Under the pieces are notes generated by a model, which saw nothing but the letters and a program-made list of their open reading frames with translations, was not told the DNA's origin and did no database searches. Shown here piece by piece: positions 47,839 to 55,573 of a stretch of 64,000 nucleotides of DNA. Position numbers and translations under genes: made by a program. The stretch comes from Escherichia coli (lineage in GTDB: Bacteria > Pseudomonadota > Gammaproteobacteria > Enterobacterales > Enterobacteriaceae), in the NCBI RefSeq assembly GCF_016903815.1, contig NZ_CP069973.1; one strand, 5' to 3'. The number at the start of each line of letters is the position of its first letter. The first letter of the stretch is position 1.

Positions 47839-48279
47839 AATTATCTCCATTTTTACAAATGAACTTTGTTGATGCGGTGCCTGGTGCCTCCAGGTGACTG
47901 CAACCAGTTAACAATTACAGTCGGCTTTCCCACCCAAACCAATAAGGACTAACATGACTTTTAACTGTGCCACGTGCGCTTAGCCGCATTCACCGCATCA
48001 CAAAATTCACTTTAAAAAGGGCGGACATCAGCCGAACTTCAAGAAAAAAACTGATGCCGCCAGGACTACACACAGCAATGTCGTTATTTACAACCGGAGG
48101 CGCACTCCCACCATTTAAATTTAACAGACAAGACCGACTCTTTATGGATATCGGAAATGCGCCTTCGTGTTGTGCCCGGTTTTATTTCACCACCTCCGGG
48201 CTTCGGTGGTCTCGGCTATACCCCTACAGCGAGAGCTTGTGTTAACATTTCAATACCCTTACAGTTGAGAGTTATTGAT

Positions 48280-50602: not shown

Positions 50603-51391
50603 ATGGCTTCAAACTGGATAAAGCTCGAAGTTATTACGCCGGATAAGCCGGAAATATTCAGGCTTGCTGAGATTCTGAATATTGATCCAGATGCCGCATT
50701 AGGGAAAGTCATTCGCTTCTGGGCATGGGCGGATCAACAAATGATAGACGGTAACGCAGAGTGTAACGCTCGCGGCGTTACAAAAAGTGCAATAGATCGC
50801 ATCACTTTTATGGCTGGTTTTGCTGATGCGTTAATTCAGGTTGGATGGCTGGTCGAAACTAATGGTGTGTTGTCGCTTCCTAACTTTGAGCGCCATAACG
50901 GGAAAAGCTCTAAAAAACGGGCGGTTACAAACGAGAGAGTAACAAAAATACGAGAACTGAAACGAAAAGGTAACGCTGCCAGCGTTACAAAAACGGATCA
51001 AAAAGCGTTACCAGAGGAAGAGAAAGAGGAAGATATAAATACTTATCTCCCCCTAAATCCCCCTCGCCAAAAACGAGCGTCTAAAAAATTCGAACCGGAG
51101 GCTATCGAGCTGCCTGACTGGTTGCCGGAAACACTCTGGCATGAGTGGGTTCAGTTCAGGCAGGCATTGCGAAAACCGATTCGAACGGAGCAGGGCGCTA
51201 ACGGGGCGATACGGGAGCTGGAAAAATTCCGCCAGCAGGGTTTTTCACCTGAGCAGGTGATTCGACACAGCATCGCCAACGAATACCAGGGCTTGTTCGC
51301 GCCGAAAGGTGTTCGACCTGAGACGTTACTCCGACAGGTTAACACCGTCTCGTTACCGGATAGTGCGATCCCGCCAGGCTTCAGGGGGTAA
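50603..51391 (+). CDS. ydaU: Replication initiator (lambda O-like) YdaU
   Basis: 262 aa; palindromic repeats in the 5' third; followed by DnaC-like ydaV. Confidence 0.8.
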   Translation: MASNWIKLEVITPDKPEIFRLAEILNIDPDAALGKVIRFWAWADQQMIDGNAECNARGVTKSAIDRITFMAGFADALIQVGWLVETNGVLSLPNFERHNGKSSKKRAVTNERVTKIRELKRKGNAASVTKTDQKALPEEEKEEDINTYLPLNPPRQKRASKKFEPEAIELPDWLPETLWHEWVQFRQALRKPIRTEQGANGAIRELEKFRQQGFSPEQVIRHSIANEYQGLFAPKGVRPETLLRQVNTVSLPDSAIPPGFRG

Positions 51392-51397
51392 CTGACC

Positions 51398-52144
51398 ATG
51401 AAAAATATTGCGACAGGCGACGTTCTTGAACGTATCCGCAGACTGGCCCCGTCACATGTAACCGCGCCATTCAAGACGGTAGCGGAGTGGCGCGAGTGGC
51501 AACTTTCCGAAGGCCAGAAACGTTGTGAGGAGATCAACCGTCAGAATCGTCAGTTGCGGGTGGAAAAAATTCTGAATCACTCTGGCATCCAGCCATTGCA
51601 CCGCAAATGCTCGTTTTCGAATTACCAGGTGCAGAACGAAGGGCAGCGATACGCGTTGAGTCAGGCGAAATCCATCGCTGATGAACTGATGACCGGGTGT
51701 ACAAATTTTGCGTTCAGCGGAAAACCTGGTACCGGGAAGAACCACTTAGCGGCAGCTATCGGGAATCGCCTGCTGAAAGACGGTCAGACAGTGATTGTGG
51801 TTACCGTGGCTGATGTTATGAGTGCCCTGCACGCCAGCTATGACGACGGGCAGTCAGGCGAAAAATTTTTGCGGGAACTGTGCGAAGTGGATCTGCTGGT
51901 TCTTGATGAAATTGGCATTCAGCGCGAGACGAAAAACGAGCAGGTGGTACTGCACCAGATTGTTGATCGCCGGACAGCGTCGATGCGCAGCGTGGGGATG
52001 CTGACAAACCTGAACTATGAGGCCATGAAAACATTGCTTGGCGAGCGGATTATGGATCGCATGACCATGAACGGCGGGCGATGGGTGAATTTCAACTGGG
52101 AGAGCTGGCGTCCGAATGTCGTCCAGCCAGGAATTGCGAAGTAA
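51398..52144 (+). CDS. ydaV: DnaC-like helicase loader (lambda P equivalent)
   Basis: 248 aa; Walker [11 protein letters not shown]; Walker B LLVLDEIG. Confidence 0.9.
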
Positions 52145-52166
52145 TTTTTACCGGGAGAAAAATTTA

Positions 52167-52928
52167 ATGGAGACTGTTTTTGACGTACTGAAAGCAATGG
52201 GAAAAGCCACATCCATAGAACTTGCTGCGCGACTTGATATCAGTCGTGAAGAAGTGCTGAACGAACTATGGGAACTGAAAAAGGCTGGTTTCGTTGATAA
52301 AAGCGCGTACACCTGGCGTGTGGCTGATAACAACGTTCAGCAGGAACAGCCAGCGCCGGCAGAACTGCCGGAAGAAACTACCACGGCAACAGTCGCGAAA
52401 ATTTCAGAGAGCGATTTAACTGCGACGATTGAACAACGTGGACCACAAACGGCGGATGAGCTGGCTACATTGTTTGGTACCACATCACGCAAAGTGGCTT
52501 CAACGCTGGCAATGGCAATCAGCAAAGGTCGTCTGCTTCGCGTAAATCAGGGCGGTAAATTTCGTTACTGCATACCGGGCGATAATTTACCAGCAGAGCC
52601 GAAAGCAGCATCGGTAGCGGAAACTGCTGGTAAGGCCTTTCCTCAGCCCGCAGGTGTTGCGTTACCAGTACAGGAGGCTGCAACACAGGAAGATATTAAA
52701 ACAGAAACTGTGGCGGACATTGTGCAGTCGCTGCCATCGTTTACTGAAACGCGAGCGGATGACCTGGTTTTACCATCACTGCATATGGCAAACCGCGAAC
52801 TGCGTCGGGCGAAAAATCATGTCCAGAAGTGGGAGCGTGTCTGCGCCGCGCTGCGGGAGCTGAACAAGCACAGGGATATTGTACGACAGATTACTGATTC
52901 TTCCCGCCATGTTGCATCGGAAAAGTGA
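52167..52928 (+). CDS. ydaW: Tandem winged-helix protein, apparent full-length form of the K-12 ydaW remnant
   Basis: ORF 52116-52928; start at [12 protein letters not shown]; two wHTH-like segments. Confidence 0.55.
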
Positions 52929-53366
52929 TTGCCGGAGGCACCTATGGCAAAAGTATTTACACCAGAAGAGCGGGAAAAAATTAAAGGGCAGGTTGTTGAA
53001 CTTGTACGTCTGAGCGGTCGCGAGACGTTACGGGCTCTGGAGGCTAAAACCGGTGCATCAAGGTATTACATAAGCACTCTCGCCAGAGAACTGGTCGCCA
53101 GTGGTGATGTTTACAATTCAGGCTACGGATTATTCCCGTCTGAGCAGGCGCGTAAAGACTGGCAAAACGCCCGCAAAAAACTATCGAGGGCAAAGGTGAA
53201 GAAACCTGCTGTAGTTGATCCGGACCTTATCTGGTCATTACCAGACGGAGAAATACGCCGCTATGACAGGCGTCTGAATATAATCTGTCGCGAGTGCCGG
53301 AAGAGCGAAGTCATGCAGCGTGTACTGGCGTTCTATCAGGGTAATTTTCAGGATGTGCTGTTGTGA
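52929..53366 (+). CDS. Hypothetical prophage protein (145 aa) with HTH-like segment
   Basis: ORF abutting the previous stop; prophage-typical codon usage. Confidence 0.55.
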   Translation: MPEAPMAKVFTPEEREKIKGQVVELVRLSGRETLRALEAKTGASRYYISTLARELVASGDVYNSGYGLFPSEQARKDWQNARKKLSRAKVKKPAVVDPDLIWSLPDGEIRRYDRRLNIICRECRKSEVMQRVLAFYQGNFQDVLL

Positions 53367-53527
53367 GCCAAATTAACAATCAGGGAACTGCGTGAACTGA
53401 AAGAGAAATCATAATCCAAATCTGAATAATTAAATTTAGCACTGTAAATAAAATTTAATCCTTAACCGGAGGGGGGGGCTGCACCCTCAAAATATTAGGA
53501 GGCGGCCCGAAAGGGCGGTAATGAAAA

Positions 53528-54031
53528 ATGACTGAATTAACCAAAAAGCAATTAATCGAAGAAGCTAAATTAAAAATAGCGATTGAGAAATGCCACCCCA
53601 ATTCAGGGATGGCACGGGTAGAGGGCGAATTATTCAAAATTGCTCTGGCATCGCTGGAAGCAGAGCCAGTTGGTGATTTTTATGAATACAAACCGGATGA
53701 CTGGTATCAGCGTTCGGCTGGAGATAAAGCGCCAAAATGGACGCCACCCTATGCCGTTTTTCCAGCGCCCGTAGTGCCGGAAGAAATGGATTTGCTTACA
53801 TGCCATCTCGATGGTGTAACTGAAACATATGCTGAGGGATGGAACGCTTGCCGCGCTGCCCTGCTTCAGGGCAAAGGGGAGCCCGGGAAACAAGTTCGCG
53901 AATTGACAATGCTGGTTAAACAATTGGTTAGTCAACTGAAGAAACCGAAACCGGGCTGCAAATTGCCGGATAAAGTGATGGACTACCTGGAGCGAAGCGG
54001 ACTTATAAGCGTGGAGGATGTTTTACGATGA
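53528..54031 (+). CDS. Hypothetical prophage protein (167 aa)
   Basis: ORF with AGGAGG SD upstream; no family recognised. Confidence 0.55.
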   Translation: MTELTKKQLIEEAKLKIAIEKCHPNSGMARVEGELFKIALASLEAEPVGDFYEYKPDDWYQRSAGDKAPKWTPPYAVFPAPVVPEEMDLLTCHLDGVTETYAEGWNACRAALLQGKGEPGKQVRELTMLVKQLVSQLKKPKPGCKLPDKVMDYLERSGLISVEDVLR

Positions 54032-54111
54032 CCTGGCCTGAAGCATTCACAACGGTAGGAATTGCGATGGCGGTGGCGCTGGTGGTGTATTCGATTTGCC
54101 GCTGGGGTTGA
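54028..54111 (+). CDS. Small hydrophobic peptide (27 aa) coupled to the upstream gene
   Basis: ATGA start/stop overlap; MTWPEAFTTVGIAMAVALVVYSICRWG; one predicted TM helix. Confidence 0.4.
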   Translation: MTWPEAFTTVGIAMAVALVVYSICRWG

Positions 54112-54124
54112 TAATACTAAATAA

Positions 54125-54143
54125 CCAGCCCTTATGGGGCTGG
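54125..54143. terminator. Bidirectional hairpin terminator
   Basis: CCAGCCC-TTAT-GGGGCTGG between convergent genes. Confidence 0.6.
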
Positions 54144-54151
54144 CTAATCAT

Positions 54152-54925
54152 TTAGAACTGTTCATTGCCATCGAGGTTAGGTAGCATAATTTTTTCAATC
54201 AAGGCGAGAGCCTTTTTGTCCCGGTCAGCGAAGTATTTCGGGGCATATTGCGGCAACCAAATATTGTTAAAATGTTCTTTGAAATCTGCTAAATATTCAT
54301 TTGGGTACAGCCTTGCAGGGTATACGCGACCATCGGGATATTCATGGTCATAGGTAGGGAATGTTTTGGGTTCTACGTTTCTATTATCTCTTAACCATTG
54401 TGAAAATACTCTTCCTTGTGAAATGTCAGGAACCATTTTTTCTGGGAGTGTGTACCCTGCTTGTTCAAGAGGTGCAACCAAGTTGAATGTCAGTTCATTA
54501 AGAATAGAAAAGTGCGTGTGAGGAATTCTACTACGATTAACCATGTACCGTTTTAAATGTACAGGCATTTCTGCTGTAGTTCTTTCCCCTGACATCCATT
54601 CACGAACCCATCTTGAAACCTGGACTGCAAATTTGGGCGATAGCCACTGCGCTAGATTAATAGCGATGTCAGGATGCACCCATGTCCCTTGGTTTTCAGG
54701 TCTTCCACCTTTAAATGATTGAATTAACTCCGATATGGGAATTCCCATATCGCGTGATAATTCGTCAAAAAACTCTTGAGTAGTTTTGAGTCTAGTGTAA
54801 TCAGAGAGCAGTTTGCCCGCAGTTCTACACATTGATGTGGCGTTTATGTAACCATCTTTGGCACGTAAATGTATTATTTCGCCGTCAATTTCACGAGAAA
54901 TCAAAGATAATTGAAAGGATGTCAT
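54152..54925 (-). CDS. KilA-N domain protein (antirepressor-like) with uncharacterised C-terminal domain
   Basis: 257 aa; N-terminal KilA-N/APSES-like region. Confidence 0.7.
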   Translation of the reverse strand: MTSFQLSLISREIDGEIIHLRAKDGYINATSMCRTAGKLLSDYTRLKTTQEFFDELSRDMGIPISELIQSFKGGRPENQGTWVHPDIAINLAQWLSPKFAVQVSRWVREWMSGERTTAEMPVHLKRYMVNRSRIPHTHFSILNELTFNLVAPLEQAGYTLPEKMVPDISQGRVFSQWLRDNRNVEPKTFPTYDHEYPDGRVYPARLYPNEYLADFKEHFNNIWLPQYAPKYFADRDKKALALIEKIMLPNLDGNEQF

Positions 54926-55447
54926 TGAAAATTCCTCAAGTTGGAGAGTTCTGGAACATTAAGGCGAGGTGGCAGTAATGCACCATCTGTAATCTTTTGA
55001 TACTGACGTAATCGGGCCTGATGTGCAACGCCTTGCAAGTATGTAACTCATTGAAAACGATCATTTTTATCTATTGACATCAAATGGCAAACTGTCATTG
55101 TGCGGCTATGGCAAGTGGCAAATGCTTATAAATCATATGGATATAAATAGTACAGAAAGAGTTGTTTTCTCTAGGATATGAGTATACGCCCAATGCTGAT
55201 TGGTTGAATTTTGTTCTTGTTTTAAAGGGTAAGAGTTTAAAGTGTTGGCAGTGATGTATTGGATAGTTAGAATTGCTGTGGGTGCTTGAGGCTATCTGCC
55301 TCGGGCATGAACACCAAAGGTAGATAGAGAAAAGCCCCAGTTAACATTACGCGTCCTGCAAGACGTTTAACATTAATCTGAGGCCATATCTATGCGACAC
55401 ATAGAGATTAGCCTCTTACGGACCGAAAGGTCAAGGAGAAGCAGGCT

Positions 55448-55573
55448 ATGAAGCAGCAAAAGGCGATGTTAATCGCCCTGATCGTCATCTGTTTAACCGT
55501 CATAGTGACGGCACTGGTAACGAGGAAAGACCTCTGCGAGGTACGAATCCGAACTGGCAGACGGAGGCTCTGA
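55448..55573 (+). CDS. Hok/Gef-family type I toxin homolog (HokD-like) with divergent C-terminus
   Basis: MKQQKAMLIALIVICLTVIVTALVTRKDLCEVRIRTG matches HokD N-terminus; frame then ends early (41 aa vs about 51); short upstream ORF ends on the hok ATG. Confidence 0.65.
   Translation: MKQQKAMLIALIVICLTVIVTALVTRKDLCEVRIRTGRRRL

Follow-up and report, generated by a model that had tools for sequence, protein, structure and literature searches.

The stretch of DNA analysed here (the window, 64,000 nucleotides) contains a Rac/lambdoid-type prophage of Escherichia coli, and we consider it likely that the locus of interest is explained jointly by a neutral but slippery run of eight G (G8), a split ribosome-binding site (RBS) serving the gene ORF167 and a downstream microprotein gene, ORF27, that is coupled to it. 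The G-run had drawn attention to the locus in an earlier reading made from the sequence alone. The two modest by-products of following it up, namely the ORF27 microprotein and the portable split RBS, outweigh the G-run itself. The locus as a whole is an ordinary accessory cassette of the delayed-early kind, carried by a Rac/lambdoid E. coli prophage, and its gene pair ORF167-ORF27 is translationally coupled.

Escherichia phage vB_EcoS-666R9 and many E. coli chromosomes carry the region with 100% identity. The pair is set among the following features:

50603-51391: O-like gene
51398-52144: DnaC-like gene
52116-52928: DUF1627/YdaW gene
52929-53366: DUF977/'LygF'/Ren-like gene
Between the DUF977 gene and ORF167: AT-rich spacer of 160 bp, which holds the G-run
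54152-54925, minus strand: KilA-N/BstA-like gene, convergent to ORF167-ORF27
Behind the bstA-like gene, in this order: sok/hok, a DUF1971 gene (minus strand) and a DUF1367 gene

This gene order, with the replication genes upstream, places the locus in the delayed-early right operon. The sequence-only reading had assigned the pair to a nin region, which is acceptable as a statement of position, since the pair follows the O, DnaC-like, DUF1627 and DUF977 genes and precedes the DUF1367 gene and Q. As expected of mosaic module boundaries in lambdoid phages, the leader core, the SD-hairpin unit, the C-terminal module of ORF167 and ORF27 all recur elsewhere in various recombined orders. The mosaic joints coincide with SD sequences, stop codons and start codons, and nothing in this arrangement departs from the expected architecture of a lambdoid genome.

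Origin and length variation of the G-run

Two features of the spacer are needed here:

53420-53470, plus strand: AT-rich leader core, common to many lambdoid prophage cassettes and ending in AATCCTTAACCGGA
53471-53478, plus strand: uninterrupted G8 homopolymer, seen by direct reading, lineage-specific and polymorphic in length

Direct reading of the letters confirmed the G8 at this position, with the ATG at 53528 located 49 nt downstream. In dinucleotide-preserving shuffles, 64 kb contained a mean of 0.96 G8 or C8 runs and 51 of 100 shuffles contained at least one; the single G8 in the window is the chance expectation. A 96-nt leader query found matches in 1191 of 5426 complete E. coli genomes, and alignment with EDL933, 2015C-3107 and CE10 revealed an invariant leader block, TCTGAATAATTAA..CTGTAAATAAAATTTAATCCTTAAC.GGA. 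The core also includes an imperfect palindrome formed by CTGAAT (53422-53427) and ATTTAG (53434-53439). Among the 933 genomes with a full-length leader, the G-run is present in about 150, all belonging to one lineage, and about 780 have GGGATT(C/T) or a similar sequence in its place; the versions found at the tract position in relatives are GGGATTC, GGGATTT, GGGGTTT, GTGATTT and TGGATTT. In EDL933 the last bases of the leader core are GGAGG, and another gene uses this motif as its SD; the G-run therefore sits at a mosaic joint. We propose that G8 replaced an ancestral GGGATT(C/T) and would thus be a lineage-specific homopolymer in a transcribed, non-coding spacer.

The complete E. coli genomes were queried with sequences of 94-98 nt that differed in tract length alone and were required to match exactly over 88 nt of flanks. 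In the 106 genomes with exact flanks, G8 was the most frequent length (84 genomes), accompanied by G7 (10), G9 (10) and G6 (2) and by no G10, so that about 20-21% had a length other than G8. Fourteen IMG/VR loci, whose flanks are identical over 230 bp and match the window in the 110 bp upstream and the 80 bp downstream of the tract, comprised six G7, seven G8 and one G9, and five metagenome contigs comprised one G7, three G8 and one G9. G8 is therefore not invariant among the deposited copies, and the earlier suggestion that the tract is prone to slip is supported by complete genomes and IMG/VR loci alike, in which different tract lengths are recorded between flanks that match at 100%. G7, G8 and G9 were all found on one flanking-SNP haplotype, which indicates that length change is recurrent, and a second haplotype (L004, L008 and L009) carries G7 in 3/3 copies, which indicates that tract length is heritable.

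A less likely reading, to which we nevertheless leave some room, is that this polymorphism is mostly an artefact of sequencing or assembly and that the true tract is a stable G8. Other homopolymers served as an internal control and confirm that some assemblies contain errors of this type: locus L015 also has indels in T8, A7, A6 and CCC runs elsewhere, and the loci L004 and L006, both G7, differ as well at an A7 run at position 48044. Both G6 records, together with one of the G7 records, belong to the Z1323CEC series of chicken isolates and cluster in one study; L088 has a G11-like run in which CTG is replaced by GGG and which resembles a poly-G artefact; and the G9 metagenome contig has a coverage of about 1. 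Against an artefact stand the three separately deposited ST2747 records, each with G7, the G9 common to the paired isolates KN13-4 and KN12-1 and likewise to GN02461 and GN06156, the haplotype that is G7 throughout, and an additional G9 on a haplotype marked by a nearby SNP. We conclude that the tract is most probably unstable in reality, and that the share of about 20% with a length other than G8 is a maximum, inflated to some degree by sequencing error, from which the control does not separate true slippage. We estimate that ordinary homopolymer indel rates lie orders of magnitude above the per-base substitution rate, so changes of the tract without SNPs in its flanks need no selection. In the neutral account that we favor, single G residues would be gained and lost by replication slippage at the usual raised rate of homopolymers, with some of the recorded changes being sequencing errors.

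A probable portable initiation unit before ORF167

Between the G-run and the end of ORF167 lie the following features:

53497-53502, plus strand: AGGAGG SD element, 25 nt upstream of the ATG at 53528
53503-53518, plus strand: hairpin 2, CGGCCC-GAAA-GGGCGG, 16 nt, between the SD and the AUG
53528-54031, plus strand: ORF167, 167 aa, soluble mosaic prophage protein, phrog_660

ORF167 had been described as preceded by AGGAGG. This description needs correction: the motif is not at SD distance, as 25 nt separate it from the ATG, and a hairpin of 16 nt fills much of the interval. Hairpin 2 has a predicted energy of -11.2 kcal/mol, with the MFE structure making up 0.86 of the ensemble and a z-score of -2.09. 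Most relatives have a perfect CCGCCC/GGGCGG stem, and AGGAGG directly adjoins the hairpin in nearly every copy of the cassette. Among the fetched loci the whole unit, consisting of AGGAGG, CCGCCC-GAAA-GGGCGG and TAA or TAG, recurs either after the AT-rich leader or directly after another gene, and it precedes at least three unrelated gene families:

Family 1: proteins of the ORF167 type, beginning MTELT.. or MAELT..
Family 2: 72-aa proteins, beginning MTTLF.. or MKHYL..
Family 3: 60-aa proteins annotated as DUF7167, beginning MRKFK..

The spacing between the end of the hairpin and the start codon is tightly restricted, being 6 nt in 33 copies, 7 nt in 17 and 9 nt in 27, with no other value in the 77. 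The 6-9 nt before the ATG are an A/T-rich stretch (TAATGAAAA, TAAGAA or TAGTGAA) and hold no alternative SD. The start at 53528 is unchanged in variants that have no upstream ATG (TAATAAAAATG), and a variant with GTG as its start codon retains the same N-terminus. The unit thus has the two attributes expected of split initiation, i.e., an SD more than 15 nt from the start and a stable spacer hairpin that would reduce the effective distance to within 5-11 nt. Sequence variation in the stem took the form of single mismatches and wobbles, with no double compensations. As the stem is nearly invariant and shows almost no covariation, the split-RBS model draws on spacing and conservation.

From this evidence, ORF167 is probably translated from a hairpin-bridged SD. 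Initiation would proceed through a portable 'split' RBS, in which a hairpin capped by a GAAA tetraloop shortens the effective distance between the SD and the start to 9 nt. Split initiation regions have been described for genes 25 and 38 of phage T4 (Nivinskas 1999; Malys and Nivinskas 2009; reviewed in PMC3014915), where a hairpin between SD and AUG shortens a distance of 27 nt to 11 nt in one case and of 22 nt to 5 nt in the other (PMC3014915). The unit described here is similar in having a spacer hairpin and an SD at a comparable distance from the AUG (22-27 nt in T4; here 25 nt, predicted to be shortened to about 9 nt). It differs in its unrelated sequence, with a GAAA tetraloop on a 6-bp GC stem, and in being a mobile cassette, known from sequence, that stands before several unrelated genes in temperate lambdoid prophages. 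The portable SD-hairpin unit therefore suggests that the split RBS, hitherto a curiosity of T4, is reused as a cassette in temperate coliphages.

The protein encoded behind the unit matched PHROG 660 with an E value of 2.7e-50 and has 2026 homologues in the database, in which its N-terminal module is often fused to DUF551. Searches of Pfam and NCBIfam gave no family at threshold, and no match was obtained in PADLOC or in a PDB sequence search. In the family alignment both ends of the protein are conserved and the middle is variable; the N-terminal part is a helical hairpin that closes with IALASLEAEP, and the C-terminal part is a module, ...ELTMLVKQLVSQLKK..KLPDKAMDYLKRNGLISVEDVLR, which travels with ORF27. 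The AF2 model of ORF167 has a mean pLDDT of 56 and is confident for residues 1-45 only, and the maximum Kyte-Doolittle value of the protein is 0.82.

Regulatory readings of the leader

Contingency loci are poly-G or poly-C tracts in promoters, leaders or ORFs, as in Neisseria, Haemophilus and the fim genes of Bordetella. The tract in the window resembles them in its length of about 8 G and in the different lengths recorded for otherwise identical copies. A regulatory reading would take the G-run for such a tract: slippage would alter the geometry of the leader and thereby tune or switch translation of ORF167 and ORF27, perhaps through a helix that hides the SD. The recurrence of length change on a single haplotype and the proportion of exact-flank genomes that depart from G8 both speak in favor of this reading, and so does the predicted fold of the leader. 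One further element of that fold has to be named:

53469-53488, plus strand: weak hairpin 1, in which GAGGG (53469-53473, or any five bases of the G-run) pairs with CCCTC (53484-53488)

In hairpin 1 the G-run provides the 5' arm and part of the loop. The MFE structure of the window leader is a different one, in which GGGCUGC (53476-53482) pairs with GCGGCCC (53502-53508) in a 7-bp helix and CCU pairs in addition with the AGG of the SD, so that the SD is covered. The lineage of the window has two private changes, the G-run and the change of CCGCCC to CGGCCC, and both contribute to this helix, each to one arm. For relatives that lack the tract, one of two hairpins is predicted, with a stem of 7 bp (AAUCCUU/AGGGAUU) or of 5 bp (GAGGG/CCCUC), the latter appearing in the centroid fold of one of them.

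Several observations oppose the regulatory reading. The SD-covering helix needs just three G beside CUGC, and the predicted fold energies for G7, G8 and G9 are nearly equal (-24.0, -24.4 and -24.2 kcal/mol) with the same pairing; tract length would therefore have nothing to act on. The fold of the window leader is no better than that of shuffled sequences (z = -0.49). Unlike the tracts of contingency loci, the G-run lies neither within an ORF nor beside promoter elements: no start-bearing plus-strand ORF spans it, it is not placed between -35 and -10 elements, and a consensus scan found no sigma-70-like promoter on either strand of 53200-54300. It is also not retained in homologues, as most homologous leaders are without a G-run and only about 150 of the 933 full-length leaders have it. 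Finally, the narrow spread of lengths around a mode of 8 (+/-1) fits neutral slippage or sequencing error rather than the broad range of a contingency locus. The proposal of the sequence-only reading that tract length sets promoter or leader spacing is accordingly not upheld, since no promoter was found, homologous leaders do without the tract, and G7 to G9 fold alike. We judge a contingency tract improbable here, and retain a small probability for regulation because the SD-covering helix uses two lineage-private changes.

Other candidate elements around the tract were considered and rejected. A search by eye for a promoter gave a lone TAAAAT without a -35 element. An upstream ORF running through the tract has no ATG, GTG or TTG start available, and the mini-ORF ATGAAAAATGACTGA at 53521-53535 is not conserved, its start being lost in the TAATAAAAATG variants. 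A terminator at the G-run was dismissed, as the GAGGG/CCCTC stem is present but is followed by a T-run on neither strand. No Rfam family was detected in the leader (E <= 1), and the sole Rfam match was sok, at 55280-55450.

Altogether, the behavior of the G-run resembles the ordinary slippage of a homopolymer located in a spacer without promoter function. It would have no designed regulatory role, being upstream of the translation-initiation unit and leaving the predicted pairing unchanged whatever its length. The polymorphism of a homopolymer by itself is no proof of a switch, and we regard this G-run as being of little importance. In a more specific and still less probable version of the regulatory reading, the G-run and the CCGCCC-to-CGGCCC change would together make the leader bistable, with the SD either open or hidden by the 7-bp helix and with slippage or reiterative transcription shifting the balance between the two states. 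If true, this would mean a heritable, phase-variable output of ORF167 and of a 27-aa microprotein that is found in a quarter of E. coli genomes.

The coupled ORF27 gene and the prophage module junction

The 3' part of the gene pair comprises:

54013-54017, plus strand: GGAGG inside the 3' end of ORF167, 10 nt before the ATG of ORF27
54028-54111, plus strand: ORF27 (MTWPEAFTTVGIAMAVALVVYSICRWG), 27 aa, predicted single-pass membrane microprotein gene, in ATGA overlap with ORF167
54122-54146, minus strand: intrinsic terminator hairpin of 10 pairs, 6 of them GC, with the tail TTTAGTATTA on the minus strand only

Reading of the sequence together with the ORF list confirmed that the TGA of ORF167 overlaps the ATG of ORF27 as ATGA, and the single hydrophobic stretch ascribed to the 27-aa product was likewise found, with a Kyte-Doolittle mean of 2.11 over residues 6-24. 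We collected 129 copies of ORF27 by a degenerate search with its first eleven codons. The ORF is exactly 27 codons long in 125 of them, and the copies are embedded in 37 upstream and 40 downstream sequence variants. The ATGA overlap is present in every copy, and a GGAGG-like motif lies 7-10 nt upstream of ORF27 in most copies and in most of the 37 upstream variants. At least four different gene ends were found before ORF27, namely the module ending in ...VEDVLR*, a DUF551 end (...PQEVNQ*), an end of the form ...EQEVNR* and an EaA-type end. Homology is bounded sharply by the ATGA on one side and the stop codon on the other, the latter being TGA or TAA at a fixed position.

To count substitutions we used codons 12-27, i.e., those that the search pattern left unconstrained. 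Of the possible changes, 23 of 37 synonymous and 27 of 107 nonsynonymous ones were observed (odds ratio 4.9, Fisher P = 1e-4), and replacements were mostly of one hydrophobic residue for another. A divergent copy in phage 24-2-1 (MTWPEAFTTVGVVMAVAFAVYSVCRWG) differs mainly at third codon positions. ORF27 is present in 1341 of 5426 complete E. coli genomes (~25%), with up to 5 copies per genome. The exact peptide has been deposited on 79 contigs as 'bacteriophage protein' or 'hypothetical protein', and PGAP did not annotate the ORF in any of the four genomes inspected (4/4). From these comparisons we conclude that ORF27 is a genuine, widespread and mostly unannotated protein-coding gene, as indicated by the signature of purifying selection on its codons.

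It might be objected that ORF27 is no gene and that its conservation reflects a linker at the DNA or RNA level for the exchange of prophage modules, given that lambdoid homology blocks often stop at short conserved junctions, that PGAP leaves the ORF uncalled and that the peptide was looked for without success in supplements of the Sakai RIBOseq and Enterobacteriaceae microproteome studies and in literature full texts; the constant length and stop position, the homology that ends precisely at the ATGA and at the stop codon, the excess of synonymous change with its predominance of hydrophobic exchanges, and the third-position differences of the divergent copy make this very improbable.

We therefore return to ORF27 as a gene, and to its product. 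Membrane microproteins that have one helix and are coupled to a neighbor include KdpF, CydX, AcrZ and MgtS, and the type I toxins include Hok, TisB and ShoB. Annotation pipelines usually miss coupled single-helix microproteins. ORF27 is like these proteins in its length of 27 aa, its single hydrophobic helix, a start that overlaps the upstream stop and its omission from annotation. It differs from them in that no significant sequence similarity was found: there was no match in Pfam, PHROG or PADLOC, the best hit being KdpF at E = 0.024, below the cut-off. There is also no evident antisense RNA or toxin-type regulation. ORF27 thus differs from type I toxins both in its lack of homology to a toxin family and in its lack of an antisense RNA, as the sok of this region belongs to the separate hok. 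An apparent ORF27-DUF551 fusion, suggested by a cluster with 121-aa DUF551 proteins, was traced to incomplete gene calls in which the ORF27 frame was read on into upstream sequence, and was discarded as an artefact.

In the proposed mechanism, ribosomes that end at the TGA of ORF167 would re-initiate at the overlapping ATG, aided by the internal GGAGG, and the product would be a 27-aa single-pass microprotein of the inner membrane. Because several different proteins precede ORF27, we infer that it acts alone in the membrane and not as an anchor for ORF167. During lytic growth it may serve as a small membrane-embedded modulator of some membrane component of the host or the phage, whichever protein is encoded upstream. 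Of all parts of our explanation, this independent action of ORF27 is the least secure. ORF27 is nonetheless a concrete candidate for small-protein studies in prophages.

The 3' end of ORF27 also marks a junction, behind which lies defence and toxin-antitoxin cargo (hok/sok, parDE, bstA). The GC-rich hairpin that follows the gene pair had been read as its terminator. The hairpin is indeed present, but no T-run follows it on the plus strand, and it does not qualify as a terminator of the ORF167-ORF27 transcript. As the T-rich tail is on the minus strand only, the hairpin serves the convergent KilA-N/BstA-like gene, in agreement with a published description of bstA loci as having a Rho-independent terminator of their own (PMC8585504).

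Variable cargo behind the 27-aa microprotein gene

The 3′ end of ORF27, the gene for a 27-aa membrane microprotein, is a recurrent junction (54111/54112 in the window; 2175-2900, 2080-2450 and 2225-2600 in the comparison loci L019, L020 and L022, respectively). The cargo that follows it differs, being hok/sok, parDE (RelE/ParE-ParD) or, as in the window, bstA and then hok/sok, and in lambdoid prophages the junction may act as a hotspot for toxin-antitoxin and defence cargo. The two cargo elements of the window are as follows.

54152-54925, minus strand, convergent: bstA-like KilA-N gene (PHROG 6287, E = 2.7e-89; PADLOC BstA, E = 3e-21; Pfam KilA-N)
55280-55573: sok/hok module (Rfam sok plus hok ORF)

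The KilA-N gene matches the BstA abortive-infection family. In published bstA loci, the gene start is overlapped by the cognate anti-BstA DNA element, 'aba' (PMC8585504). Within the second element, sok was detected by Rfam at 55280-55450 with a score of 101.5 bits. A 1-nt deletion near 55557 shifts the frame of the hok ORF (55448-55573), leaving a product of 41 aa that ends in …RIRTGRRRL. At most related loci, Hok has its usual length of 51 aa.

Possible coupling at gene junctions

Where the SD-hairpin cassette (AGGAGG plus a GAAA-loop hairpin) lies directly behind another gene, as at about 2300-2345 in L033, about 2815-2860 in L016 and in similar loci, the sequence reads ...GATTAATGTCAGGAGGCCGCCCGAAAGGGCGGTAAG. 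It contains a 9-codon mini-ORF, MSGGRPKGR followed by a stop, whose start lies within a TAATG overlap and whose end is 3-6 nt upstream of the next ATG. Because its translation would melt the hairpin of the cassette, the mini-ORF may serve as a coupling relay.

In the protein alignment, one homologue of the 167-aa prophage protein ORF167, P0075, has the C-terminus ...VLRWPGLRHSQQ. Judged from this sequence, its frame appears to run beyond the usual stop and into the ORF27 region in a different frame, and P0075 is therefore probably a frameshifted copy in which the ATGA junction is broken.

Palindrome and homopolymers

The shared AT-rich core of the ORF167 leader contains one further element.

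53422-53439: imperfect palindrome, CTGAAT-N6-ATTTAG

In relatives the palindrome is perfect (CTGAAT-N6-ATTCAG), the window reading ATTTAG instead, and it is limited to one of the three leader-core types. Protein binding, or formation of a small hairpin in the RNA, is a possible role for it.

Homopolymers of A7, T8 and A6 (window 48044, 44062 and 53181) also differ by one base between the window and some IMG/VR assemblies (L004, L006, L015), and homopolymer miscalls are therefore present in the comparison data. One IMG/VR copy (L088, about 60-100) reads GGAGGGGGGGGGGGCACCCTC, an 11-G run with GGG in place of CTG; the explanation is a poly-G artefact of sequencing or else a larger expansion of the tract.
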